64,000 bases of DNA from the sequence record NC_018087.3; one strand, given 5' to 3'. Both the position numbers and the translations under genes were made by a program. Shown in pieces: positions 3,070 through 51,044 of the stretch (within the stretch, counting starts at the first letter, position 1; each line of letters starts with the position of its first letter). Under the pieces are notes generated by a model that did no database searches, was not told the origin of the DNA, and saw only the letters and a list, made by a program, of their open reading frames with translations. Origin of the DNA: Acinetobacter phage ZZ1.

Positions 3070-3840
3070 GTGATTTATTCTCTCATGTACAAAGTAATGC
3101 GTCGGAGAGAAGGTGATAAAATAGAATTAATTAAAGTCCCTATTACATTTGCTTCAAAAGAACGCTTTATTATGAAACTAGATGCAAAAACATCAGTTAA
3201 TAATGGAGATGGTTCTATGGCAAAAGTGGAAACAATTTTGCCAAGAATGTGCTTAAGCTTGGTAGATTTAGTATATAACCCAACATATAAAACAAATATA
3301 ACAAACAGAACTATCAGGAATCCTGCGAGTAAAACCTCATTAATTTCGCAATATAATCCGGTTCCGGTTAAAATGATTTTTGAGTTAAGTGTTTACACTC
3401 GACATCAGGATGATATGTTTCAAATTATTGAACAAATATGGCCATATTTTCAACCACATTTTTCAACCCAAATGAAAGAATTGCATGGCAATGATATTAC
3501 ATTTGATAGAAATATCAGAGTTACAATGCAGTCGGTGGCCTTAGATAATCAATTAGAAACAGACAAAACTACACGACGCCGATTGGAAACTGCTTTTATA
3601 TTTGAAGTTAATGGGTGGTTATACCCACCTGTTGCTGAAATTGCTGGTGAAATTCGTACAATTTATATTGATCTTTTTGCAAATGAAAAAGAGTTAAATG
3701 CCTCAGGACGCTTTGAATCGGTTGACACTCAAGTATCGCCAGAAGATATAGATTATAATGATTGGGACGGTAATCTTATACAGTCAGTTTCGGCCAATGT
3801 TCCTATTCCTGTTGCACCTGAACCACCTCACCCAAGGTAG
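3070..3840 (+). CDS. 15: tail sheath stabiliser / tail completion gp15 (ORF as tracked; conserved N-terminal codons lie upstream in another frame, see findings)
   Basis: Matches T4 gp15 (VPIT.ASKE.F.MKL, ILPR..L.LVD, SQYNP.P.KMI.ELS..TR..DDMFQI.EQI.PYFQPHF, FEVNGW.YPPV, PEPP.PR). Confidence 0.85.
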
Positions 3841-3845
3841 ATGTT

Positions 3846-4330
3846 ATGAGTAATACCCAAAATTTTTTAGATCAAATTATGGACTTCACCGACCTACCCG
3901 GGGTTGGCGGTGAAGAACTGGTTGTTTATAAACCATTGGAATTAACTGATGTTGAATCTAATCCTCAAGATCGAACTATTGATTTAAATGAAGATTATGC
4001 CAAAGTTCGCAAAACATTAGATCATCAACAACAAATGCTTTTTGATGCAGCCAAAGTTATGCTGGAAACGGCAAAAAATGCAGATTCTCCTAGACATATG
4101 GAAGTATTTGCAACCTTGATGGGTCAAATGACTACAACATCAAAAGAAATTCTTAAACTTCATAAAGAAATGAAAGACATTACAAGTGAAAATGTCTCAA
4201 CCCAAAACCCAGGGGATAATTCTGGTGTAAATATACAAAACGCGCAAGTATTTGTCGGGGGTCCTACTGAACTTATGGATAAACTCGGTGATGCTTTTGA
4301 AACTAAAAACCTTAATGTGGTAGACGAACA

Positions 4331-6646: not shown

Positions 6647-8626
6647 ATGGCTTTATTATCTCCAGGTATTGAGTTAAAAGAAAATACCACTCAAAGCACA
6701 GTTGTGCAAAATGCAACAGGCCGTGCCGCAATGGCAGGTAAATTTCAGTGGGGCCCAGCTTTCCAGGTAATTCAAGTTACAAATGAAGTTGAACTTGTTG
6801 ATTTATTTGGTCAGCCTGATAATGCAACCGCTGATTATTTTATGAGCGCTGCAAACTTTTTACAATATGGTAATGACTTGCGTTTAGTCCGTGTTGTAAA
6901 TGAAGACTCGGCCAAAAACTCTAGCCCTATTGCAGGTCATTTAAAAACAACTATTACTGCGTCAGGTAGTAACTATGCTGTAAATGACAAAGTTATTATT
7001 AAGTACAATACAACAACTATTGAAGATGCTGGCGTTGTAACTGCGGTTGATAAAGACGGCAAAATCTTAAAAATCTTTGTACCTTCTGAAAAAATCATTG
7101 CATATGCAAAATCAATCGGTCAATATCCTGCATTAAGTGATTCATGGACTGCAGAAGTTGTTTCAGTTGCCTCTGGTATTTCTGGTGCAATTAATGTGGA
7201 TTCTATTGAAACTGATTCTGGTATCTTATTAACTGATCCAGAAAATGCAGACGAAAAAATTACATCAGTTGCATTCCAAGCTAAACTTGCTGCGTATGCT
7301 ATGCCTGGTGTTGTTGCATTATATCCAGGTTCAACTGGCGATCAATTAGAAGTAGAAATTGTATCTAAAGAAACTTATGATAAAGGTACTGCAGTCCCTT
7401 TAACCATTTATCCTAATGGTGGTTCACGTACATCTTTAGCTAAAGCAATTTTCGGTTATGGCCCACAAAATGATAATGAATATGCATTTATTGTTCGTCG
7501 TAATGGTGAAGTTGTAGAATCATATGTTCTTTCAACTGAGCGCGGTGCAAAAGATATGTATGGAAGCAATATTTTCTTAGATGATTATTTTGCACGGGGT
7601 TCAAGTAACTATATTTTTGCAACAGCACAAGGATTCCCTAAAGGTTTTTCAGGTATCATTCGTTTATCTGGTGGTATTTCAGCTAATGATGCAGTTACAG
7701 CTGGCGATCTTATGCAAGGTTGGGATAAATTTGCAGATTCAGAAGCACTACATGTCAATTTAATGATTGCCGGTTCTTGTGCGGGTGAAGATGCAGAAGT
7801 TGCATCAACCGTTCAAAAACATGTTGTTGCTCTTGCTGATGAACGTATGGATTGTTTGGCCCTTATCAGCCCACCCCGTGAAACTATTGTAAATATCGGC
7901 TTAACTCGCGCTGTTGATAATTTGATTGCATGGCGTGAAGGTACTGGTGCATACGAAGCGGCTAATATGAATATTAGTTCAACTTATGCATTTATCGATG
8001 GTAACTACAAATACCAATATGACAAATATAATGATGTAAACCGTTGGGTTCCATTGGCTGCTGATATTGCAGGTCTTTGTGCCCGCACTGATGATATCTC
8101 TCAACCTTGGATGTCACCAGCCGGTTATGTCCGTGGTCAAATTCTTAATTGCATTAAACTTGCTATTGAGCCTCGTAAAGCACAGCGTGATAGATTATAT
8201 CAAGATTCTATTAACCCAGTTATTGGTGCTCAAGGCGGCGATGGTTTCTTACTTTTTGGTGATAAAACAGCAACTAAAGTTCCATCTCCATTTGACCGTG
8301 TAAACGTACGCCGTTTATTCAATATGCTTAAAAAGAATATTGGTGACGCATCTAAATTCCGTTTATTCGAAATTAATGACGCATTTACTCGTAGTTCATT
8401 CCGGATGGAAACAACTGCGTACTTAGCGGGTATTAAATCGCTTGGTGGTGTATACGATTTCCGAGTAGTATGTGATGAGACAAATAATACTCCGGCGGTT
8501 ATTGATCGCAATGAATTTGTTGCTACATTCTATATTAAACCGGCGCGTGCAATTAACTTCATTCAATTGAACTTTGTTGCTACTGCAACAGGTGCTGATT
8601 TTGATGAAATCATTGGTCGTCAATAA
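6647..8626 (+). CDS. 18: tail sheath protein gp18
   Basis: 659 aa, the same length as T4 gp18. Sits immediately after terL and before the tube gene, with a late promoter upstream. Confidence 0.9.
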   Translation: MALLSPGIELKENTTQSTVVQNATGRAAMAGKFQWGPAFQVIQVTNEVELVDLFGQPDNATADYFMSAANFLQYGNDLRLVRVVNEDSAKNSSPIAGHLKTTITASGSNYAVNDKVIIKYNTTTIEDAGVVTAVDKDGKILKIFVPSEKIIAYAKSIGQYPALSDSWTAEVVSVASGISGAINVDSIETDSGILLTDPENADEKITSVAFQAKLAAYAMPGVVALYPGSTGDQLEVEIVSKETYDKGTAVPLTIYPNGGSRTSLAKAIFGYGPQNDNEYAFIVRRNGEVVESYVLSTERGAKDMYGSNIFLDDYFARGSSNYIFATAQGFPKGFSGIIRLSGGISANDAVTAGDLMQGWDKFADSEALHVNLMIAGSCAGEDAEVASTVQKHVVALADERMDCLALISPPRETIVNIGLTRAVDNLIAWREGTGAYEAANMNISSTYAFIDGNYKYQYDKYNDVNRWVPLAADIAGLCARTDDISQPWMSPAGYVRGQILNCIKLAIEPRKAQRDRLYQDSINPVIGAQGGDGFLLFGDKTATKVPSPFDRVNVRRLFNMLKKNIGDASKFRLFEINDAFTRSSFRMETTAYLAGIKSLGGVYDFRVVCDETNNTPAVIDRNEFVATFYIKPARAINFIQLNFVATATGADFDEIIGRQ

Positions 8627-11033: not shown

Positions 11034-11459
11034 ATGCAACTTATTGTTGAGAACGAATTAGTTTTTGATGATGTAGTTAATTTTTTGCCAGAAGCTGAAC
11101 AACGATTTAAGGATTTATCTGCTGTATTTTCACATGAAGAAATTCAACGTATCGTCGAAAATATGGTAGATAAAACACCTATTATGGCAATTGCATTAGG
11201 TTCACTTGTTGAATCTATGCCATTAAATGAATTTATGGTTAAGCATGTTAGTTCTAAAGGTGAATTAACTCGCACCAAAGACCGTAAAACTCGTCAGCGT
11301 CTTGCATTTCAAACTACAGGTTTATCTAAATCAGCTCGCCGCCAAATCGCTCGCAAAGCTGTTAAAACCAAAAAAGCTAATCCAAATGATCAAATTCGTG
11401 CCCAAAAGAAAATTAAAAAGGCAAAACTTAAACGTAAATCAATGTATGGATTAGACTAA
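11034..11459 (+). CDS. 68: prohead core protein gp68
   Basis: 141 aa, the same as T4 gp68, with a basic C-terminus; supported by synteny. Confidence 0.7.
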
Positions 11460-12103
11460 TGACCGAAGAAATGCTACTTATTGAGCATTGGGGTCAACCA
11501 GCAACCGTTAATGATGTTACACCGACGATGATTAGCGAATCAGCTAATGGTAAATTAAAACCGGGATTATATATCGAAGGTGTATTTCTTCAAGCAGAAG
11601 TAGTTAATAGAAATAAGCGTCTTTATCCAAAACGTATTCTTGAAACTGCTGTTGATAAGTACATTAAAGAACAGGTTGTTACAATGCAGGCTTTGGGTGA
11701 ATTAAATCATCCTGCTCGAGCCCATGTTGATCCAATGCAAGCTGCCATTATCATTGAAGATATGTGGTGGGAAGGTAATAATGTTATGGGCCGCGCTCGT
11801 ATTATTGAGGGTGATAATGGTCCAGGTGATAAACTTGCTGCAAATATTAGAGCAGGCTGGATTCCAGGAGTATCTAGTCGAGGTTTAGGGTCAATTAAAA
11901 GTTCCGGCCGAGGTTATAATATTGTACAAGAAGGTTTCCGTTTAACAGTGGGTGTAGATGCTGTTTGGGGCCCAAGTGCACCTGATGCCTTTGTTACACC
12001 AAAACAAATTACTGAGAGTGTAGAACCAGCTGAAGAACCGGTTAAAAGTTCAAGTGCTGATTCAGCTTTTAAAACCTTAATTGGCAACTTAAAAGCATTA
12101 TAA
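11459..12103 (+). CDS. 21: prohead core protease gp21
   Basis: Very high similarity to T4 gp21 (LKPGLYIEG.F.QAEVVNRNKRLYPKRILE, QALGELNHP.RA.VDPMQAAIIIEDMWW.GN.V.GRAR.IEGD.GPGDKLAANIRAGWIPGVSSRGLGS). Confidence 0.95.
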   Translation: MTEEMLLIEHWGQPATVNDVTPTMISESANGKLKPGLYIEGVFLQAEVVNRNKRLYPKRILETAVDKYIKEQVVTMQALGELNHPARAHVDPMQAAIIIEDMWWEGNNVMGRARIIEGDNGPGDKLAANIRAGWIPGVSSRGLGSIKSSGRGYNIVQEGFRLTVGVDAVWGPSAPDAFVTPKQITESVEPAEEPVKSSSADSAFKTLIGNLKAL

Positions 12104-16751: not shown

Positions 16752-17870
16752 TTAATAAATGATACCAACTTCAAATGCAGATCGATGAATAATTCGACCA
16801 TTACGAGATTCTTGAACATCAACTTCAGGGAAGTCTTCTAACATTTTTGCAAGAACCGCTAAATGGCAGTAATAGGGCGAATCCTCTTTTGTAGCGGATT
16901 TCCAATCTTTACCTTCTTTGGTTAATTTTTCGATGGCATCCATTACCCACCATCCAGTCCAAATATACGCAGAATTACGTTGTGGCAAAGGATGAACATA
17001 TACTAATGGGCATTCTTCAGGAACTTCAATTGTTTTAACTGAAATAGCCAATTCATTAGAAGTTACGGTAACAGAATCATAATCAGTAGCAGAAACAGCA
17101 ACAGTTAATTTTACAGTTTCAGTGCCAGCTTCCGTAGGTGTTTTTGTTAAAGTATTTCCCGTAGAATTATCAGACCATTTATACTCAACAGTTGCACCTT
17201 CTGGTATCCCATTCACTGCAGATGTTATTGTATATGATTCGCCTAATTTAATAACTGGCGTTTCAGTTGCAATAACAACCGTTGGAGACATAGTTTTATT
17301 TTTAATAGTAATTTGAACAGCATTTGATGTAGCTATGCCATCTTGATAGTTTGGTGCTTTAACGGTAACTTTACAAGTATATGATGTTTGGCTATTTTTA
17401 GCAGCTATAAGTGCAATACTTTTGGTTTTATTTGTGCTAGCACTACCCCAATCATAATCAATAGTAGCACCTTCTGGCGCCCCAGTAACTTCACATGTTA
17501 AAGTATATTGATCGCCAATTGTAACGAGTTCTTTATCCGTAGTAAGAAGAACTGTTAAATTCATAACGTTGTCTTCAACAGTTAAAGTAACAGTGTCTTC
17601 GGCTATTGAATCTTCAGTATCTTGAGCCTTTGTTGTTGCTATTACCTTAACAGAATATGTTCCTGCTTTTGCGGGCTTATACGTCATTGTTGATGCGGTT
17701 GAATCTTGTGCAGCACCATCTACAGTCCAAACATATGTTGTAATAGCATCAGGAATTTCTTCGGTACCACTGACTGTTGCAGTGAATAACTGCGATTTTC
17801 CTGTTGCAATTGATGCAGCGACTGGCGTAATTTTTACTGTTGTTGCCATTATTCTAGGCTCCGTTGTCAT
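16752..17870 (-). CDS. hoc: Hoc-like outer capsid decoration protein with tandem Ig-like repeats
   Basis: 372 aa against 376 in T4 Hoc. Opposite strand to genes 23/24, as in T4. Several ~90-aa beta-rich repeats with Ig-like Y.C/K.V patterns (TYSVKVIAT, YTCKVTVKA, VKLTVAVSA), followed by a distinct C-terminal domain. Confidence 0.55.
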   Translation of the reverse strand: MTTEPRIMATTVKITPVAASIATGKSQLFTATVSGTEEIPDAITTYVWTVDGAAQDSTASTMTYKPAKAGTYSVKVIATTKAQDTEDSIAEDTVTLTVEDNVMNLTVLLTTDKELVTIGDQYTLTCEVTGAPEGATIDYDWGSASTNKTKSIALIAAKNSQTSYTCKVTVKAPNYQDGIATSNAVQITIKNKTMSPTVVIATETPVIKLGESYTITSAVNGIPEGATVEYKWSDNSTGNTLTKTPTEAGTETVKLTVAVSATDYDSVTVTSNELAISVKTIEVPEECPLVYVHPLPQRNSAYIWTGWWVMDAIEKLTKEGKDWKSATKEDSPYYCHLAVLAKMLEDFPEVDVQESRNGRIIHRSAFEVGIIY

Positions 17871-17926: not shown

Positions 17927-18157
17927 TTATACACCTTTAATTGTGTGTTTACCAGGATGAGTAGCCGGTATAGCTAATTCATTTTCTTTAATAGATTCAA
18001 CAATATTATTATCCAAATACCATATAGGCTTATGGATAGTTAATTCATCGGAATTTTCTATTAAATCAAGTCCAGTTATATTATGTACAGCAGTTAATAA
18101 CTCACCCCAAGGCGATAACTTTATCATTAAGATATACTGGAACTTCCGGTATATCAT
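17927..18157 (-). CDS. hypothetical protein (76 aa)
   Basis: ORF only. Confidence 0.3.
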   Translation of the reverse strand: MIYRKFQYILMIKLSPWGELLTAVHNITGLDLIENSDELTIHKPIWYLDNNIVESIKENELAIPATHPGKHTIKGV

Positions 18158-20515: not shown

Positions 20516-20542
20516 AAAAAGGAGCCGTTAGGCTCCTTTTTT
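20516..20542. terminator. bidirectional terminator (A5, GGAGCC-GTTA-GGCTCC, T6)
   Basis: Seen directly between convergent uvsW (+) and the minus-strand small-ORF block. Confidence 0.75.
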
Positions 20543-23125: not shown

Positions 23126-23880
23126 ATGGCTAATATTATTAGATGTAAATTACCAGACGGCGTTCATCGTTTCAAACCATTTACTGTTGCTGATTACCGT
23201 GACTTTTTACTGGTTAGAAATGATATGGTCAGTAAAGACGAAGAAGAACAAGAAGTTTTGGTGAATGAGCTTGCTGCAGATTATTTTGGTGAATACCCAG
23301 AATCATGGCAGCATTATTTTTTTTTCAAGCCTTTACGGGATCAATTGGTAAAACTAAAATTCCAATTGTATTTGAATGTCCTGTATGCGGCAAAAAAACA
23401 AAGCGATTATTTAATTTGTCTCAGGGACCTTTAGATAACCCTAAAGTACAGTTAAATGACGATACTTATATTTCATTTAAATTTCCAGAAAATTTAGAAG
23501 ACGAACCAAGTCAATTGATATTAAAAAATGTAGATAAAATTGAATATCAAGGTTCTACTTATAATTGGATGGAATTATCGAAAGAAACACAAGATGCAAT
23601 AATTTCAATGATTAATTTTGAAAAGTTTGAAGCTATTGTTAAAATGTTAAAGCCCCTGCATTTTGAAATGAAATTAAAGTGCTGTGAAGAACATACCTTG
23701 GTTTATGATGATTTATGTTCTATTTTTAAATTATTAATAAATCCTGACGAAGTATTTCCATTTTATGAAATTAATCATATCTTAATTAAAAATAATTATG
23801 ATATTAATTCAATTATGGCAATGCTTCCAGCAGAACGTTCAATTGCTTTATCTTTGATTGAAAAGGATAATAAAAAATGA
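23126..23880 (+). CDS. 51: baseplate hub assembly catalyst gp51, split between two frames at a T9 run (23317..23325)
   Basis: ORFs 23126..23434 and 23305..23880 overlap in adjacent frames. The joined length is about 251 aa against 249 for T4 gp51. Conserved position between 26 and 27. Confidence 0.65.
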
Positions 23881-29769: not shown

Positions 29770-30430
29770 ATGTTTGATCTTTTAACAGAAACTCAATTAA
29801 ATGAAATTTTTGATGCGGATACACCAGGTGTCGTGTATCCTGTTGAAAATCTAACACCTAATGCAAAAGTACCACAAATGTTACATATGAAAGTACCGGG
29901 CACTAATGATTTAATTATTAGATTGACTCATTTGGATACAATAGGTACTCGTGTAAAAGCTGTGCAGCCAAATGATAAAACAGTTCAAGTCTTTTTAATG
30001 TCATTATCAGATAAGGGCAATATTACTGATTTTAGAGGTGGTTTAGGTACTGATCCAGTTGGTGCAATTAATACAATGTTTGCAACTGTAATGGATATTT
30101 CTAAAAAATATCACTTCGAATCGGTTTTATTCAGATTCACTAGAACAAAAATGAAAGGTAAATCTGAACAGGCTAAACGTGTTTTATCTCGTTTAATTAA
30201 GCAAAGATCAGGAGGACGATATACTACTTTAGAAGAAGTAACTCGATCGGAATCCAAAAAGTTTGATTTCGCTTTGGCTATAAAGAAAAATTCTGATTTA
30301 TTAGATGATATTGCTTCTTCTGCTAAGGGATATCAAAAAGTTGAAACTAAAGCCGGTATTACATATATTAATGACAACACTGGTAATCAAGTAACTAAAG
30401 CTGAAGTTGTCGCTGATGTATTAACATCCC
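29770..30430 (+). repeat. direct repeat copy A of the Alt N-terminal domain (about 220 codons); copy B is 31917..32580
   Basis: The two proteins are about 70% identical over ~200 aa (LTHLDT.GTRVKAVQP.DKTVQVFLMSLS.KGNITDFRGGLGTDPVGAINT). Confidence 0.8.
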
Positions 30431-31857
30431 AATCTGCTAAAATTACAGATCAACAAATTGCAGCAAAATCTAAAATTTCCAGACGAGCAGCATTTGATGC
30501 AATGTATAATGTCGGAACAGAATTTTCAGCTAAACGTAATGAAACTAATGAAGCGACATTCCAAGAGTTAAAAAATACTGTTCCTATTACGCCTGCAACT
30601 CGTCCGGAATCAATAGTTTTTAGACATATTGCAAATAAAATTAAATATAAAAGTTATGCAGATTCTTTGCGTAATTGGAACCCAAAAGAAGTTAAGTACG
30701 GTCCTGGTAATTTAAATGCAGAAACATTCTTAAGCATGATGGCCGATGTTTTTAAAACCACACCTGCGAACATTTTTAAATTGTTTCAAGAACATGTCGA
30801 TGCATTTGCTGATATTGTTGAGCAGACGGACCCACGAGATACAAATGCAACTGTCGTTAAAATTGCAAATTATTTTTCATCTGGTAGATTTGCAGAATTA
30901 GATTTTGATGATAGACAAACATTAATCAAAGGCGCTGTATACACTTTTATTCATTACATTTCAAATGATATAAGAGAAGCTTATAGTGATTATACAATAG
31001 GTGAAATTTCAGCAGAAACCAAATATACTGATGAAGATATTAAAGCTATTCAGTCATATACTGGCAATCGATATGTAGAAATGAACGACTTTTTGACTGG
31101 CAGTCGTCCAAATATTAGTCCTGCGACATTGGCTGAAATTAAAACATTAGATAATATTTTTGTGAATAAAGGTGATACTTTACCAAAAGGCACTAAAGTT
31201 TACCGCGGGATGTCAATGAAGGTTCCGCAACTTAAAACGGTTGTAGAATCAAAAATTATGTATTTTGCTAATATTGTATCCACATCATTACTGCCTGTAA
31301 TTTATAACGGGGCCTTTGCTGCAGTACATCCTACAATTGATAATGCGTCTACTGACATTACAAATTTAGATACAATTGAAGATGTATTGGGTTCAAAATT
31401 GTATACTCCAGACGATGCATATGATTATAAACGTCATGGCGAAATTGGTAAAACTATTTCATTAGGTATGGTTATTTCAGGTGTTGATAAAATTAACTGT
31501 ATTGTTCCCGGGAATGTTTCATCATATTCTCACGAGTGCGAAGTTATGTTACCTCGCGGTACAGCAATGCGAATTATAAAGTTTATGGCGCCACCTGAAG
31601 ATTCTGATGGTTGGGCTGCAACCGGTCTTATGTACTTAGATATAATTGAGCCTGATCAACTTACAGAATCAATGGAATTTATTGATGGAGATAAATTCTT
31701 AGCCGAAGGCGTTTTAGAACCTATCTCATTTAGTAATATGTTTAATACTAGACATAAAATATTAACCGAGTCATTAACACCAGATAATGAAATGTCTAAA
31801 GATTTATTATTAAGCTGTATTAATATGAATCAAGTTCCAGATAGATTTATGCGTTAA
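29770..31857 (+). CDS. alt: Alt ADP-ribosyltransferase (capsid-packaged, injected with DNA in T4)
   Basis: 695 aa against 682 for T4 Alt. Shares N-terminal LTHLDT..TRVKAVQP blocks and KISRRA, and the R-S-E ART motifs: YTGNRY, LPKGTKVYRG (Arg), YFANIVSTS (STS), ECEVMLPRGT (catalytic Glu). The C-terminus EPDQLTESMEFIDGDKFLAEG matches the T4 Alt C-terminus. Confidence 0.85.
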   Translation: MFDLLTETQLNEIFDADTPGVVYPVENLTPNAKVPQMLHMKVPGTNDLIIRLTHLDTIGTRVKAVQPNDKTVQVFLMSLSDKGNITDFRGGLGTDPVGAINTMFATVMDISKKYHFESVLFRFTRTKMKGKSEQAKRVLSRLIKQRSGGRYTTLEEVTRSESKKFDFALAIKKNSDLLDDIASSAKGYQKVETKAGITYINDNTGNQVTKAEVVADVLTSQSAKITDQQIAAKSKISRRAAFDAMYNVGTEFSAKRNETNEATFQELKNTVPITPATRPESIVFRHIANKIKYKSYADSLRNWNPKEVKYGPGNLNAETFLSMMADVFKTTPANIFKLFQEHVDAFADIVEQTDPRDTNATVVKIANYFSSGRFAELDFDDRQTLIKGAVYTFIHYISNDIREAYSDYTIGEISAETKYTDEDIKAIQSYTGNRYVEMNDFLTGSRPNISPATLAEIKTLDNIFVNKGDTLPKGTKVYRGMSMKVPQLKTVVESKIMYFANIVSTSLLPVIYNGAFAAVHPTIDNASTDITNLDTIEDVLGSKLYTPDDAYDYKRHGEIGKTISLGMVISGVDKINCIVPGNVSSYSHECEVMLPRGTAMRIIKFMAPPEDSDGWAATGLMYLDIIEPDQLTESMEFIDGDKFLAEGVLEPISFSNMFNTRHKILTESLTPDNEMSKDLLLSCINMNQVPDRFMR

Positions 31858-31860
31858 AAG

Positions 31861-31889
31861 AAAGGGCCCTTCATGGGCCCTTTCTTTAT
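31861..31889 (+). terminator. terminator hairpin (AAAGGGCCC-TTCAT-GGGCCCTTT) after alt, overlapped by the late promoter TATAAATA at 31877..31884
   Basis: Seen directly. Confidence 0.6.
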
Positions 31890-31916
31890 AAATAGAATAT
31901 AGCTAGGAGAAATAAC

Positions 31917-32606
31917 ATGTTATTAGAAAATATGACAATTGATCAATTAAACGAAGTTTTTGACGCCGATAATTTGGGTACAATTTATCCCGTTCAAGAT
32001 TTAACCCCAAAGGCAAAAGTACCTCAAATGCTTCATATTAAAGTGCCTGGTACTAATGATCTATTAGTTCGATTAACTCATTTGGATACTGTTGGGACTC
32101 GTGTAAAAGCAGTTCAACCTGGTGATAAAACCGTTCAAGTGTTTTTAATGTCACTATCTGAAAAAGGAAATATTACAGACTTTCGTGGTGGTTTAGGTAC
32201 CGATCCAGTTGGTGCAATTAATACTATTTTTACAACCGTTTTAGATATTTCTAAAAAATTTAGATTTGATTCCGTATTATTCCGTATCCCTAAAAATAAA
32301 ATGAAAGGTCAAGAACGTGCGGTACAACGAGTTCTTTCAAGATTAATTAAAAATCGTTCAGGTGGTCGTTTCACAACATTAGATGAAATTGAACGCGATG
32401 AATCAAAGAAATTTAGTTTTGTAATGGCGTATCGTAAAAATTCAGATGTTTTAGATCAAGTCCCATTATCGGATAATATTGAAAAAGTTGAGACTAAGGC
32501 AGGTGATACTTTTATTGATAAAGATACTGGAAAGCAAGTTTCTAAGGCAGAGGCGGTGGCTTCCGAAATTGTTAAAAAAGCTGAAAAGATTACAACAAAA
32601 ATGTAA
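31917..32606 (+). CDS. Alt paralog, N-terminal domain ORF (229 aa); upstream half of a frameshifted alt-like gene
   Basis: About 70% identical to the Alt N-terminus. Ends with KITTKM* where Alt continues. The downstream frame continues the homology. Confidence 0.75.
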   Translation: MLLENMTIDQLNEVFDADNLGTIYPVQDLTPKAKVPQMLHIKVPGTNDLLVRLTHLDTVGTRVKAVQPGDKTVQVFLMSLSEKGNITDFRGGLGTDPVGAINTIFTTVLDISKKFRFDSVLFRIPKNKMKGQERAVQRVLSRLIKNRSGGRFTTLDEIERDESKKFSFVMAYRKNSDVLDQVPLSDNIEKVETKAGDTFIDKDTGKQVSKAEAVASEIVKKAEKITTKM

Positions 32607-34066
32607 TTTCAAAAACTAAAGTAAGTAAGCAAGCTTTAATCGCAGCCCTTTATGGTGAAATCGAAACTATTAAAATGAGTACCGCTGCTCTTGAAGTTTT
32701 TAATGATTTACAATCAACAGCAGAACCTTTATCATCAAAAGGTGTAGAACTTTCAAAAGGCGTTTCTATGGCTGAAAGTTCAATGAAGAATAGTTTAACT
32801 ACTTTATCATATAATCTTGAGCGAGTTTCTCAAGTTGGCCGTGATCAACGTTTTGTGAATCACCCTGCGACTAATTTGGTAACTCATGTTGAGTATCAAT
32901 TAGCAAGCAATATTGGTTGGCCGATGGCTGAAGCGGAATCATTTGGTCGCTATCTATTGGGTCGAATTTCAGATGTTTTACGTAAAGCAAAACCGCTTCA
33001 ATTAAATAATGCATTTAAAGATATCGCAACGGCTGCCTTAGAACATGAAGGATTTAGAAAATTAACTCTTGCACAACGTTTAGATGTTATTGCACCTATT
33101 GTGACTTATATTATTTATGATACATCAGAAGATATGTCTAGAGTTGTTTCACGATCGCCTAATTTGTATGGCACTGCAAAATGGTCTCAGGCTCAAGCAG
33201 AAGTTGTTAAAAATTATTGTGATACGTCATATGACTTAATTAATGGTTTCTTGCGAGGTATTAATAACCCAGGTTCGCCTAAACGTCTGTATGAATTGGT
33301 TGAAACTATGGACTCAGTATTTGAAGAGCATGGGATTCGTCTTAAGAAAGGCACATTATTATACCGTGGCCAAAAATTAACAAAGCAAGATTTTGTTAAA
33401 ACTATGGAAAATAAAATGTTCTATTTCCGAAATTATGTTTCCACTTCAATGACTCCAATCATTTATGGTATATCGCAATTTGGTGAAGGTAGTATTGCTG
33501 CAATGTTAGCTGATAATCCAACTAACGCAGATACGCATACACCTGAAGAAATTGTTCAATCTGCTCAAGGTGAAGTTTCACCTCAAGATGAACTTATGAA
33601 TATGACATATTATGGTGAGCGTGAAGTTCCAAGTATTTCATATATTATTTCGGGTGCGGATAAACTTAAAGTGATTATCCCAGGTTCATTAGCCGAATAT
33701 TATGATGAACAGGAAGTTATTCTTCCTCGAGGTACAGTCATTAAGTATAATACTGTAATAGGTGGAAACCTTGATAAAACTGCCGATGGTTCTGCTCTAT
33801 TAAAAAATATTATAGTTGAAGCCGAAGTTTTAGATCCATCTTTATTAAAAGAATCTGTTGTTTATGATGGCGATCTTTTCATGGAAACAGGTGAAATGGT
33901 TGCAGTTGATTTAATTACAGAAGATGTGGCAGAAGTTACGGAATCACCATCTAATTCCTTTTCAGCACAATTCCGTAAACCAAGATTCGAAAATGAGTCT
34001 AATGAAATTTTACAAGCTTTATCTGCAATAGCATTTAAAAATATTAAACCTAAATTTATTAGCTAA
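32585..34066 (+). CDS. Alt paralog, ADP-ribosyltransferase domain portion (frame open from 32585; first ATG at 32675), continuing the 31917 ORF after a -1 frame change at ACAAAAATG (~32600)
   Basis: The upstream-open frame encodes ISKTKVSKQALIAALYG, matching Alt's IAAKSKISRRAAFDAMYN. ART motifs are present: YRGQKL (Arg), YFRNYVSTS (STS), EQEVILPRGT (Glu). Confidence 0.75.
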   Translation, partial: KDYNKNVISKTKVSKQALIAALYGEIETIKMSTAALEVFNDLQSTAEPLSSKGVELSKGVSMAESSMKNSLTTLSYNLERVSQVGRDQRFVNHPATNLVTHVEYQLASNIGWPMAEAESFGRYLLGRISDVLRKAKPLQLNNAFKDIATAALEHEGFRKLTLAQRLDVIAPIVTYIIYDTSEDMSRVVSRSPNLYGTAKWSQAQAEVVKNYCDTSYDLINGFLRGINNPGSPKRLYELVETMDSVFEEHGIRLKKGTLLYRGQKLTKQDFVKTMENKMFYFRNYVSTSMTPIIYGISQFGEGSIAAMLADNPTNADTHTPEEIVQSAQGEVSPQDELMNMTYYGEREVPSISYIISGADKLKVIIPGSLAEYYDEQEVILPRGTVIKYNTVIGGNLDKTADGSALLKNIIVEAEVLDPSLLKESVVYDGDLFMETGEMVAVDLITEDVAEVTESPSNSFSAQFRKPRFENESNEILQALSAIAFKNIKPKFIS

Positions 34067-34096
34067 AGAAAAGGGAGCCTTATGGCTCCCTTTCTT
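34066..34096. terminator. bidirectional terminator (AAGGGAGCC-TTAT-GGCTCCCTT) between the convergent alt-paralog and ligase operons
   Basis: Seen directly. Confidence 0.7.
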
Positions 34097-36529: not shown

Positions 36530-37021
36530 TTATCCAAATTTCTTAATTAAAAATTCTGCATACTTTTCACGGATGCGTGTTAAATTACCCACAAATTCTT
36601 CAATTGTGAGAATTGTATCATATGGATCGGTTTTACCAATAGAATGCTTTAGTTCCTTACCTAAAGAATCATACAAAGCCTTTTGGTATTTTTCATTCTG
36701 AGCAAAACAACACATAAACCCGCGCTTTAATAGTTCTTGATAAAAATCAGAATGCCTATTAAATGGTTGCCCTTTCCAATATAAAGTTTGACCTTTAATC
36801 GGACGAATACCTCCAGAGGTTTTAGCCTGGATTCCATGCATTGCAAAGATTTCTTTTTGTCTTTTCGGATTACTCTCGCGAAGACCTTGTAAAAATCCTT
36901 CTGTCGAACCAAAGTACATATTATCCATTATAAATGGATTTGCAGTTAAATTACTCAATTGCCCGGCTGGACCAGACAATCGAAAGTAAATGTCAATACA
37001 ATCAGACATATGAAAGTCCAC
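36530..37021 (-). CDS. NADAR (YbiA-like, DUF1768) domain protein
   Basis: IYFRLSGPAGQLSNL...F.....YF.STEGFLQGLR follows the YbiA N-terminal pattern (FY...G.LSNF ... EHYFQA.KF). 163 aa. Confidence 0.5.
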   Translation of the reverse strand: MDFHMSDCIDIYFRLSGPAGQLSNLTANPFIMDNMYFGSTEGFLQGLRESNPKRQKEIFAMHGIQAKTSGGIRPIKGQTLYWKGQPFNRHSDFYQELLKRGFMCCFAQNEKYQKALYDSLGKELKHSIGKTDPYDTILTIEEFVGNLTRIREKYAEFLIKKFG

Positions 37022-37067
37022 TTGTTGAAATTTGATTTATTATATAACAAGTGAAATACAATGTAAA

Positions 37068-37104
37068 TAAAAAGGCCTCAATTATTTGAGGCCTTTTTAT
37101 TTTA
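37068..37104. terminator. bidirectional terminator (AAAGGCCTCAA-TTAT-TTGAGGCCTTT flanked by A/T runs)
   Basis: 11-bp stem seen directly. Confidence 0.7.
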
Positions 37105-37404
37105 TTTAAAGTATTTTAGATCGCCAGAATAAACTGACATATACTGTGCTTTGTTCGCACTTTTGTCATATTCATTTATCTGAAAATCAGATCCTTTCTT
37201 TTGAACAAATCGAAGTGTAGTTTTAGATGCTTCCAAAATTACAATATCTTTAAATTCTTTACCGGCTTTATTGACACCATGATCACCTGGTTTACGATCA
37301 GCATTGGCATCAATCAAGTCATATTCTACTTGTTTAAGGGTTGAAGAATAGCCTTCATTTAATTGAAATTTAGATTCTTCTGCGATTTGGCTAAACGGTT
37401 TCAT
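37102..37404 (-). CDS. hypothetical protein (100 aa)
   Basis: ORF only. Confidence 0.35.
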   Translation of the reverse strand: MKPFSQIAEESKFQLNEGYSSTLKQVEYDLIDANADRKPGDHGVNKAGKEFKDIVILEASKTTLRFVQKKGSDFQINEYDKSANKAQYMSVYSGDLKYFK

Positions 37405-37405
37405 G

Positions 37406-37729
37406 TTACTTTCCTTGATTTAAAAATTTTGCGCTTGATAGTGGGATATGGATTGAATTCCAAAGGTCTCTGTACATTTCTACAGATTCAATATGATATT
37501 CATTTTCAGCACCCTCTTTATGAGAATATTGAAATATGCGAGCATTATTTTGAAGAATAACACTACCTTCTAAAACCGTACCATCGAACTTAAGTGCATT
37601 AGATCCAATTGCCCTATTTGCATTTGTAGCAACAAATTGATAATCTTTTGGTCCTAATTCGCGAGGCGTGTATAATTCATGAGGATATCCGGCATCACGG
37701 GCATCCTCAAATAAGTGTTTGTATTTCAT
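37406..37729 (-). CDS. hypothetical protein (107 aa)
   Basis: ORF only. Confidence 0.35.
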   Translation of the reverse strand: MKYKHLFEDARDAGYPHELYTPRELGPKDYQFVATNANRAIGSNALKFDGTVLEGSVILQNNARIFQYSHKEGAENEYHIESVEMYRDLWNSIHIPLSSAKFLNQGK

Positions 37730-37730
37730 A

Positions 37731-37979
37731 TTATTTCAGCGTTACAATAATGTGCCGAACTGATTTATGAGCACGTGAACAAAGACGTTTAGCATATTTA
37801 ATTTCATCTAATTGAACAAGTTCATCATGTAATGCTTTTTGTGCAGGATTTAAATGCTTAAAATATTGCAAAAAGTGCAGCATTGATGAACTTACATCAA
37901 TAATAGAACCGTAATTATCGTGGCCTCTTGACCAAGCTGTACGCTGAATATTTAGAATATGTTGAATTTCTTGTTCCAT
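37731..37979 (-). CDS. hypothetical 82-aa protein at the T4 rIII position
   Basis: Exactly 82 aa like T4 rIII, and immediately downstream of gene 31 in transcription order. I cannot verify the sequence similarity. Confidence 0.3.
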   Translation of the reverse strand: MEQEIQHILNIQRTAWSRGHDNYGSIIDVSSSMLHFLQYFKHLNPAQKALHDELVQLDEIKYAKRLCSRAHKSVRHIIVTLK

Positions 37980-38021
37980 TTCTTTTACTCTATAAAGTTA
38001 TTTTATAGTAGTATTTATAAT

Positions 38022-38042
38022 AGAAAAAGGGCCCGAAGGCCC
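38022..38042 (-). terminator. terminator after gene 31 on the minus strand (GGGCC-CGAA-GGCCC followed by TTTTTCT on minus)
   Basis: Seen directly. Confidence 0.55.
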
Positions 38043-38047
38043 CTTAA

Positions 38048-38380
38048 TTAATTATTTGATACACAAGCAATATTACGATAATGACATGTGATGTATTTTT
38101 CATCTCGATCTTTTTCTTTAACATTACCATATGCTACATCGGGATGTGGTACATTTAATTTATCCCCTAATGGGAATGGGCAACCGTCGCCAATTTCAAA
38201 TAATCCTTTTGGAACATTAGGGCCAATTTTAAACACTTCGCAAATTTTAGGTACTTCACCTTGTTCGCGAACACCAATGACCAAATCTGGAACTACATCT
38301 GAAAAAATTTCAGTACCAGCTGAACGCGCTACCGCTTTTAATACAACATATTCGCCTAATGCAACAATTTCTTTTGACAT
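38048..38380 (-). CDS. 31: co-chaperonin gp31 (GroES-like, for capsid protein folding)
   Basis: 110 aa against 111 in T4. GroES-like beta pattern (VVLKAV...SG..IF...). Conserved position between rIII and cd. Confidence 0.75.
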   Translation of the reverse strand: MSKEIVALGEYVVLKAVARSAGTEIFSDVVPDLVIGVREQGEVPKICEVFKIGPNVPKGLFEIGDGCPFPLGDKLNVPHPDVAYGNVKEKDRDEKYITCHYRNIACVSNN

Positions 38381-38383
38381 AAT

Positions 38384-38713
38384 TTACCCTTCAATTTTAG
38401 ATTGAGCTTGTTTTAAGATTTCATCTTTATTTAGTCCACCAAATCCAATTAAATCATCAAAAGAGAATGAACGCCATCCATCTTTAATATCATATACCGG
38501 CAATGATGTAGTAGATTCTTTACGAATAGAACCATCTGATTTAGGTGGTGGATTCATATACTTTTCATAAAGTTCTTGATCAATTAGACCCGGATCACGT
38601 GTTGCTGATAACACACGAATAGAACCATCTTTCTTTTTAAAAACAACTTCATGAATACCTAAAGATAGTTTTAGTTTTAGGTATTCGCGTAAAACAATAT
38701 TGGAATCAGACAT
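38384..38713 (-). CDS. hypothetical protein (109 aa; 31.1 position)
   Basis: ORF; synteny. Confidence 0.4.
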   Translation of the reverse strand: MSDSNIVLREYLKLKLSLGIHEVVFKKKDGSIRVLSATRDPGLIDQELYEKYMNPPPKSDGSIRKESTTSLPVYDIKDGWRSFSFDDLIGFGGLNKDEILKQAQSKIEG

Positions 38714-39261
38714 TATTCGCCTCCGAAATTAACAATATTTTCCCAATTCAAATTTTTAAGTTGGACTTTACTGATTTGGTGGACTTGGACACCGGCATCT
38801 GTGAGAATTTTTTCCCACCCTGGTTGATTTCGATCATAGCTCTCTGAGTAGACCAATTGTTTAATACCACTGTTGGCAATAGCTTTTGCGCAATCAGGAC
38901 ACGGGCTAAGAGTGACGTACATTGTCGCACCTTCAATCGCTGTACCATTCTTAGCTGCATATAAGATTGCATTAAGTTCTGCATGGATTTCATTTGCCTT
39001 GCTCCAGGCACTGTGTAATTCACGACACTCACGTTTAAGAGCGGTTTGGTTGGTATGAGGAGGCACCGGATTGTATCTGTTAACGGTCCATCCTTCTTGT
39101 TCGGCATGATCACAGCAATTTACTCCTCCGGCCGGTGAGCCGTTATATCCAGTCGAAATAATACGACCATTTTTTGCAATAACGGCGCCAACTTTCCAAG
39201 ATACACATTTAGATTCTTGTGACACAAGATATGCAATTTGCATTAATGATGTTGATTTCAT
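38713..39261 (-). CDS. cd: dCMP deaminase
   Basis: Zinc-binding CCDHAE and PCPDC motifs of cytidine/dCMP deaminases. 182 aa against 193 in T4. Confidence 0.9.
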   Translation of the reverse strand: MKSTSLMQIAYLVSQESKCVSWKVGAVIAKNGRIISTGYNGSPAGGVNCCDHAEQEGWTVNRYNPVPPHTNQTALKRECRELHSAWSKANEIHAELNAILYAAKNGTAIEGATMYVTLSPCPDCAKAIANSGIKQLVYSESYDRNQPGWEKILTDAGVQVHQISKVQLKNLNWENIVNFGGE

Positions 39262-39287
39262 ATCATTTACCTCTAAAGTATAACTTA

Positions 39288-39821
39288 TTATAGCGCAACA
39301 ACTTCCGAGCGTATGATAGTTGCTTTACCTTTTTTATGATGAAGTAATTCTTTAATTGCTTCAATTTTATTAACATGTATAACTAACCAAGTTTCTTCAT
39401 ACCCATAATTATTTTCACAAATAAGACGATATTGCTCGGCTAAACCAAAATGACGAAGCATACGGGCGTTGTAATCTTTAAAATGGCCTTGCATTAAATC
39501 AAGTGGATCGACCCATTTAACAAGACCTGTTTCAGATTCTGCTACTTCTTGTCGAGGCACAGTATAATCGATTACTGCTAAAAATGTTGATACTTCCCAT
39601 TCACTTGAATTATCACATTCAACAAATCGATCGCTATTTACCAAATTAACGGTATAACCAGTCTCTTCTAATGTTTCTCGAATGGCACATTCTTCTGGAG
39701 TTTCACCAGGGTCTGCTTTGCCCCCTGGTAATCCAAAATCGTTATGATCATTTTTCCGAGAAACTCCTAAAATTTTATTTGTTTTAGGATCAATAATTAA
39801 TGTACAAGCTGAATATCGCAT
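39288..39821 (-). CDS. nudE: Nudix hydrolase (NudE-like)
   Basis: Nudix box GGKADPGETPEECAIRETLEETGY. Confidence 0.85.
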   Translation of the reverse strand: MRYSACTLIIDPKTNKILGVSRKNDHNDFGLPGGKADPGETPEECAIRETLEETGYTVNLVNSDRFVECDNSSEWEVSTFLAVIDYTVPRQEVAESETGLVKWVDPLDLMQGHFKDYNARMLRHFGLAEQYRLICENNYGYEETWLVIHVNKIEAIKELLHHKKGKATIIRSEVVAL

Positions 39822-39822
39822 A

Positions 39823-40134
39823 TTACCACCAAATTGTTATCGTGTCATCGCTGAAATTTGAGCTATTTTCACAAGTACATCCAACGGCTCGCATATTTTT
39901 AATAAATTCATTTCTAAATTTAACTTGTGGACAATCTGCACCACCGGCTCTTGAACCCACTTTTGCCAAAATAGTACATTTTGTTGATGTGCCAATTGTT
40001 AATGACGAAAACCCTAACATCGCTTTATGTTCAATTTCTTTAAAAACCAGTTGGGTTAGATAAATTAAACGTTTATGCGCATCGGCAGGCGTGGATAACC
40101 GACTTAGACTTTTTGCTTCTTGAATTAACATCAA
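39823..40134 (-). CDS. hypothetical protein (103 aa)
   Basis: ORF only. Confidence 0.35.
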   Translation of the reverse strand: MMLIQEAKSLSRLSTPADAHKRLIYLTQLVFKEIEHKAMLGFSSLTIGTSTKCTILAKVGSRAGGADCPQVKFRNEFIKNMRAVGCTCENSSNFSDDTITIWW

Positions 40135-50124: not shown

Positions 50125-51044
50125 TTATAAACCTTTTAACAAGTCATCTAAACCAGGATCAGCAGCCGGAGCAGCTTTAACAGGTTCAGGTGTTGCAGCA
50201 GGTTCTACATCAGTTTGAGCGGTAGCAGTGAAACCAGCCATTTGCTCTTCAAAATTATCAAGTTCATTTGCAATATTATCAGCCTGAGTTGCGGCTTGTG
50301 CTGCTGCACCACCCATAACAGCAGTACCCATAATACGTTTAAATGTTTCTTCATTTTTTTCAAAATATTGAATTGATCTTTTGCAGTTAACACATCAATA
50401 TCAACCATATTATCGATTAATTGTTTTTGATATGCTTCATCTTCAATATTTTGAATCTTAGATTGACCTAAGAATTTACATTCGTCGTAGTTGCTAAAAC
50501 CACCAACTTGCTTAACTTTAAGAATAAAGTTTGCACCTTCGAATGGACATGTTACATCAACAGGAATTTCACCCATATCAGCATTTACTTCAATCATCGC
50601 ATTGATCTTATCCATAACTTTTTGACCAAAACGATATTTAAACACTTGACCTTCATTTTTAGGATTAGCTGGGTCTTTAATAACCAAGATGTTACACCAG
50701 AAAGAAGTTTTGCGTTTAATTTTACCATACAATTGATTGTCTGTATTATATAAATCATTATCAGAAATATATTTACATACAGGGCATGATTCAAAATCGC
50801 CATGAGTAGATGTACAGTTTTCGATATACCATTTACCGTTATTTTTGAAACCGTGGTTTACAAGTTTAACAAATGGGATTGATTCGGGTGTACGACCAGG
50901 CAAGAAACGAATTACAGCAGTACCATTTTTTGCATTGTCTAGCTCAAGTTTCCATTCTTTACCATCGGCTTCATTAAATGAACCTGCACCTTTCATTGCT
51001 TGAAGTTGAGCGGCTAATTGAGCTGGGTCTTTACGTTGAAACAT
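50125..51044 (-). CDS. 32: single-stranded DNA-binding protein gp32, with a frame change at an A7 run (50354..50360): body in ORF 50205..51044, acidic C-terminal tail in ORF 50125..50331
   Basis: N-terminus matches T4 gp32 (MF.RK..A.LAAQ...G..F...D.EWKL.LDNA.NG.AVIRFLP). The tail ending LDDLLKGL matches the T4 gp32 C-terminus LDDLLNDL but is in the -1 frame. Joined length is about 306 aa against 301 in T4. Confidence 0.85.

Follow-up and report, generated by a model that had tools for sequence, protein, structure and literature searches.

Two tandem Alt paralogs in the Acinetobacter phage ZZ1 lineage, the second probably split in the record by a base-drop error

The alt locus of Acinetobacter phage ZZ1 (record NC_018087.3; genome 166,687 bp) comprises two tandem paralogs of T4 Alt. 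Both are probably intact, selected genes in the phage lineage, and the frameshift that splits the second is most likely a base-drop error found only in the record. In the window that we analysed, a stretch of 64,000 nucleotides (nt) from this genome, alt1 (29770..31857, plus strand) encodes an intact Alt-family ADP-ribosyltransferase (ART) of 695 amino acids (aa). Next to it, alt2 (31917..34066, plus strand) encodes a second Alt-family paralog of 716 aa once a single T is put back between positions 32596 and 32597. As deposited, alt2 is two plus-strand open reading frames (ORFs), a 5' piece of 229 aa (31917-32606) that ends in KITTKM* and a 3' piece of 463 aa (32675-34066). A first-pass annotation of the sequence had described these three ORFs, and its sequence-level statements all hold. 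It had also noted an open -1 frame, starting at 32585, that continues the homology past the stop; in the ORF list this frame indeed reads ...KNVISKTKVSKQALIAALYG... into the 463-aa ORF. The joined paralog, put there at about 716 aa, has exactly the 716 aa of the intact orthologue in the relative W16.

Only the ZZ1 record lacks the T. We compared the junction with five close relatives: the nearly identical GenBank phages W16 and Henu6, the European Nucleotide Archive (ENA) metagenome contigs ERZ28646472 and ERZ784180, and the Logan contig SRR33991142. Alignments place a single-base loss at 32596..32597 on the plus strand, where ZZ1 reads ACAAC^AAAAATG and 5/5 relatives read ACAACTAAAAATG. The deposited ZZ1 letters at 32592-32603 are ACAACAAAAATG; W16, Henu6, ERZ28646472, ERZ784180 and SRR33991142 all carry ACAACTAAAA(A/G)TG at this point. 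An extra base near the junction had been named beforehand as the mark of a simple intact duplicate. The relatives effectively supply that base, as a T and not as the predicted A.

Once repaired, alt2 bears the signature of a functional gene. It is intact at 716 aa in four independent assemblies (W16, ERZ28646472, ERZ784180 and SRR33991142); in W16, which is 98.7% identical, it is a single 716-aa ORF. The restored ZZ1 Alt2 protein is identical to the metagenome version (P0010), and between the restored gene and the ENA copies we counted 6 synonymous and 0 non-synonymous changes. Among the intact copies, the ratio of non-synonymous to synonymous substitution (dN/dS) is 0.03-0.12. Besides the lost T, the sole ZZ1-private change in alt2 is one synonymous site. 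Intact copies, purifying selection and the lack of any decay past the break therefore show that alt2 functions and is selected for in the lineage. Of the three readings that the first-pass annotation had left open (two injected ARTs, a decaying duplicate, or recoding at ACAAAAATG), the first fits the phage lineage best, with alt2 intact in the four assemblies and under purifying selection.

Henu6 possesses the T, and its own annotated alt2 is 'split' elsewhere, at an N and a 43-nt gap (7463-7506 of its locus sequence). This position points to an assembly problem rather than to a second independent inactivation. We considered the Henu6 split as independent support for decay and gave it little weight, as it coincides with the N and the gap.

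Other genes in the ZZ1 record are broken in the same way. We compared indels between the window and W16 and Henu6 over about 38-48 kb of ~98% identical DNA. Three more ZZ1-private single-base deletions emerged, splitting hoc, gp51 and gp32, all of which are intact in both relatives; 7/8 of the ZZ1-private one-base indels are deletions. In hoc (Hoc-like head decoration; minus strand), a loss at ~17931 leaves ORFs at 16752-17870 and 17927-18157 in place of the intact 468-aa ORF of W16 and Henu6. In gp51 (baseplate hub assembly catalyst; plus strand), the loss lies at ~23318 beside a T run and yields ORFs at 23126-23434 and 23305-23880; the deposited protein has 191 aa versus 251 aa in the relatives and lacks Pfam profile positions 1-68. 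In gp32 (single-stranded DNA-binding protein; minus strand), a loss at ~50366 leaves ORFs at 50205-51044 and 50125-50331 and cuts off the acidic C-terminal part, giving 279 aa with a nonsense tail versus 306 aa in W16, Henu6 and the metagenome copies. T4 cannot grow without gp32 or gp51, and a viable phage should therefore not carry such lesions. That the lesion in essential gp32 is real is unlikely.

The alt2 split itself is already known: its GenBank annotation and its publication date from 2012-2014. Each deposited protein is an exact match to its ORF: alt1 is CDS209 (AHI44679.1, 'Alt-like RNA polymerase ADP-ribosyltransferase'), and the two alt2 pieces are CDS210 (AFL47721.1) and CDS211 (AFL47720.1), both named 'putative split RNA polymerase ADP-ribosylase'. 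The ZZ1 genome paper of 2014 presented CDS209 (695 aa) as Alt, and CDS210 (229 aa) with CDS211 (463 aa) as a second Alt after 'an even splitting event', which it read as an evolutionary event unique to ZZ1 (PMC4177764).

We instead consider it probable that the alt2 frameshift is an error, a base dropped from the ZZ1 record and never put back. Residual base drops in the record would cover all four sites (hoc, gp51, alt2 and gp32) at once, which favours error, and 'many split genes' in the first assembly were put down to assembly errors by the ZZ1 authors, who added only 5 bases on revision (PMC4177764). Several points weigh on the other side. The authors re-checked the split genes by polymerase chain reaction (PCR) and Sanger sequencing, and they kept the alt split and discussed it as real (PMC4177764); its retention may mean that it was confirmed. 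The lost base is a lone T adjoining an A5 run and lies outside any long homopolymer, the classic site of such errors. Since T4 can do without Alt, a true knockout would be tolerable (PMC9958956; PMC5694885). The packaging, cleavage and enzyme activity of both Alts are drawn from homology only, and the deposited sequence alone would look the same whether the base was dropped in the record or a mutation had removed it from the phage that was sequenced. Such a genuine and very recent mutation of the ZZ1 isolate or laboratory stock, knocking out a dispensable second Alt, is possible, although we think it rather unlikely. The phage would then make the N-domain as a 229-aa fragment, with hardly any of the ART fragment or none. 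The dispensability of Alt and the split kept after the PCR re-check speak for it, as do the disruption of Henu6 alt2 at a different place and the frameshifted remnant of a duplicated alt N-terminus in T4, an indication that tandem alt copies do get lost. Against it stand the single-base losses in gp32 and gp51, which are just as private and are not expected to be tolerated, the N and gap at the Henu6 lesion, typical of an assembly problem, and the lack of decay downstream of the break in ZZ1 alt2.

Older or functional origins of the split fare worse. That alt2 is a long-term decaying duplicate, a pseudogene on its way out, is very improbable. It has the deposited split in its favour and a precedent in T4, where alt.-1 and alt.-2 just downstream of alt represent a tandem second Alt N-terminus broken by a frameshift, as in the ZZ1 record. 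This remnant (3541-3929 of the T4 locus sequence) matches residues 1-62 (58%) and 56-117 (61%) in two frames (E=2e-36) and starts MELITELFD like alt. The T4 copy has lost the rest of the gene including the ART domain and is a case of true long-term decay, whereas ZZ1 alt2 is whole and otherwise identical to its functional relatives. The intact copies in four independent assemblies, their dN/dS, the zero non-synonymous differences and one private synonymous change after repair, and the catalytic and processing motifs, all of them kept, argue against decay. As the T4 remnant shows, the later breakage of tandem alt copies is an old theme in the Alt family.

We find a programmed -1 ribosomal frameshift, or other recoding, joining the two alt2 ORFs at ACA-AAA-ATG harder still to credit. 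One tRNA-Lys could slip back from the AAA at 32598-32600 to that at 32597-32599 and so yield exactly the wild-type KITTKNVIS, and the two frames overlap by 22 nt. However, the two-frame layout is not conserved, with the frameshift absent from 5/5 relatives, all of which encode the junction in one frame. The site has no canonical X-XXY-YYZ slippery heptamer, its zero frame ACA-ACA-AAA-ATG-TAA permits a single-tRNA slip only, and the 93 nt downstream show no more structure than shuffled sequences (z=+0.58). The A run is also too short for transcriptional slippage, which counts against recoding. A mixed scenario would make the split real: a late-made 229-aa N-domain with its LNE site would be packaged without the enzyme, and rare tRNA-Lys -1 slippage on C-AAA-AAT would restore a little wild-type full-length protein. 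We hold this to be highly doubtful; if true, leaky slippage at alt2 would be a natural case of a frameshift dosing an injected effector.

By sequence, both genes are unambiguously Alt-family ADP-ribosyltransferases. Pfam PF03496 is found in both Alts (46.5, 43.7 and 48.8 bits, cut-off 23.4), with E-values of 3.5e-12 for alt1 and 6.9e-13 for alt2. PHROG 802 (phrog_802, 'Alt-like RNA polymerase ADP-ribosyltransferase') is matched end to end, over positions 2-673 of 674 by alt1 (E=5e-185) and positions 4-673 of 674 by restored alt2 (E=6.5e-170). Each protein is 31% identical to T4 Alt in full-length alignment. A search of NCBIfam with the Alts gave no match, nor did a sequence search of the PDB, so that no solved structure of an Alt relative was reachable by sequence. 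The alignment to T4 Alt and the profile searches, which the first-pass annotation had suggested as checks, thus gave ART-family matches for both proteins.

The catalytic motifs are complete in both paralogs. In alt1 they span 31198..31560 on the plus strand, with the arginine in VYRGM (31198-31212), STS in VSTS (31276-31287) and ExE in ECEVMLPRG (31534-31560); PF03496, phrog_802 and the T4 alignment agree with its earlier description as an intact Alt with an Arg/STS/Glu triad. Those of alt2 span 33359..33733 on the plus strand: LYRGQ (33359-33373), YFRNYVSTS (STS, 33437-33448) and EQEVILPRG (33707-33733). The columns R478, S503-T504-S505 and E574/E576 (T4 numbering) are invariant in the alignment of T4 Alt, alt1 and alt2. 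The alt2 triad had been called complete but diverged. All its motifs are kept, as claimed, but 'diverged' is not apt: the T4 Alt motifs LYRSQ, YFRNFVSTS and EMEVILPRG are nearer to those of alt2 than to those of alt1.

Both Alts carry putative cleavage motifs for the prohead protease gp21 at each end. T4 Alt is present at ~40 copies in the prohead core, is non-essential and is trimmed by gp21 (PMC9958956), and mass spectrometry located its cuts after ITE-6 and after LTE-619 (PMC5694885). The LNE of alt1 (residues 10-12; 29797..29805, plus strand), proposed earlier as a gp21 site like that of T4 Alt, aligns exactly with the known cleavage site ITE-6, with the Glu invariant. At the other end, alt1 LTE (residues 631-633; 31660..31668, plus strand) aligns with T4 LTE-619, L617 and E619 being invariant. 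In alt2, also on the plus strand, the corresponding candidates are LNE (residues 11-13; 31947..31955), aligned to ITE-6, and LKE (restored residues 644-646; 33845..33853), aligned to LTE-619. The window encodes a gp21-type prohead protease (11459..12103, plus strand; PF03420 Peptidase_S77, E=1.6e-89), the enzyme that would process both Alts. Homology thus gives good grounds for the proposal that the Alts are packaged and processed effectors, and would extend it to a second, C-terminal site. If they behave as their homologue T4 Alt does, both proteins would be assembled into the prohead core, each trimmed by gp21 after its N-terminal LNE and C-terminal L-x-E motifs, and injected with the phage DNA, whereupon the Alts would ADP-ribosylate host proteins through the R-S-ExE active site. 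The shared N-terminal domain would serve as a common module in this scheme.

The two paralogs share their N-terminal domains far more closely than the rest. The N-domains are 67% identical (152/226, E=2e-115); the shared domain described by the first-pass annotation is thus borne out, at a value somewhat different from its ~70%. The full proteins are 40% identical, the part outside the N-domain ~26%, and the middle third ~17%. Synonymous divergence in the N-domain is near saturation (dS ~1.25), with dN ~0.25 and dN/dS ~0.2. The near-saturated dS with low dN indicates that the duplication is old and that selection has held the N-domain. On the same near-saturated dS we rejected gene conversion as a source of the N-domain identity. 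The N-domain can reasonably be read as a shared module for packaging or ejection, with the divergent parts facing the targets, and the divergent middle and ART regions suggest that alt1 and alt2 may have different targets.

Synonymous divergence between ZZ1 and W16 is ~50-fold higher at alt1 than at alt2 (pS 0.097 vs 0.002), which suggests allele exchange by recombination at alt1. The early genes downstream of the ligase gene (37003-40130) are mosaic: identity to W16 and Henu6 falls to 90-96%, and some segments are unalignable.

The ZZ1 pair resembles T4 Alt in content and setting. T4 Alt (gpAlt), a capsid-packaged, injected NAD+:arginine ADP-ribosyltransferase, shares with the ZZ1 Alts full-length homology, PF03496, the R / STS / ExE residues, and N-terminal (I/L)-x-E and C-terminal L-x-E gp21 motifs at aligned positions. 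In both phages gp48, gp54, the DNA ligase gene and a late-promoter motif lie nearby; in ZZ1 the baseplate genes gp48/gp54 are upstream of the alt pair and a convergent ligase gene is downstream. Unlike T4, ZZ1 has two full-length alt copies in tandem and an Acinetobacter host, and its alts run with the baseplate genes and converge on ligase, whereas T4 alt has the same direction as ligase (PMC4177764).

Tandem alt genes are widespread. A tblastn search found 1815 places in 1220 phage records, and adjacent Alt-like genes are annotated in JS98 (alta/altb), Bp7, Ac42, vB_EcoM_005 and many Tequatroviruses; the duplications in Ac42, JS98 and Bp7 have been described (PMC4177764). Compared with other tandem alts, the ZZ1-type pair combines a strongly conserved N-domain (67%) with a very divergent middle, and at this identity level it is specific to the Zedzedvirus lineage. 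The papers on KARL-1 and DLP1/DLP2 held nothing relevant on Alt or virion proteomics.

The space between the two genes holds a strong hairpin and, after it, a late-promoter motif of T4 type. The terminator-like hairpin (31857..31887, plus strand; AAAGAAAGGGCCC-TTCAT-GGGCCCTTTCTTT, 13 bp, -23.7 kcal/mol) stood out in direct folding, with z=-6.1 and 0/200 shuffles as good. A consensus terminator scan did not report it; the miss is technical, since the stem takes in the T-run. The hairpin runs directly into TATAAATA (31887..31894, plus strand), an exact match to the late-promoter motif that lies 22 nt 5' of the alt2 ATG and is followed by AGGAG (31905-31909, plus strand) before that ATG. The terminator and exact TATAAATA noted ahead of alt2 in the first pass are thus present, and position would make the motif a promoter. 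Its frequency is not enriched in the AT-rich window (15 seen, 11.8 expected), so the count is unusable as promoter evidence and the call rests on position and conservation: TATAAATA is invariant in W16 and Henu6, and the intergenic elements are kept in the relatives. Upstream of alt1 we found neither such a late-promoter motif nor a hairpin, and alt1 is probably read through from the upstream late baseplate operon. Between alt2 and the convergent gene lies another terminator-like hairpin (34066..34096; -20.3 kcal/mol, z=-5.7), likewise kept in relatives.

Some of these palindromes differ in orientation between strains. For the alt1-alt2 hairpin, Henu6 reads GGGTCC-TTCAT-GGGCCC and W16 its exact reverse complement, GGGCCC-ATGAA-GGACCC, so that the palindrome is flipped as a whole. 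At 20519-20540 the loop of another hairpin is flipped, GGAGCC-GTTA-GGCTCC in ZZ1 and GGAGCC-TAAC-GGCTCC in W16 and Henu6. Loop inversion of terminator-like palindromes seems to be recurrent among these strains.

The ZZ1 alt locus is ordinary and already documented, and the frameshift is its one unusual feature. T4-like phages commonly have tandem Alt paralogs, and the locus carries little biological weight in itself. The published view of a unique, evolved 'split Alt' in ZZ1 is very probably wrong. The Zedzedvirus zz1 reference record appears to contain four or more base losses that break a reading frame (hoc, gp51, alt2 and gp32), and these pass into protein databases as truncated entries. 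The lineage itself encodes two full-length Alt-type enzymes with a conserved N-terminal module, N- and C-terminal protease motifs and diverged middles. Comparing Alt1 with Alt2 is thus a reasonable way to ask what in Alt directs packaging and what selects targets in Acinetobacter.

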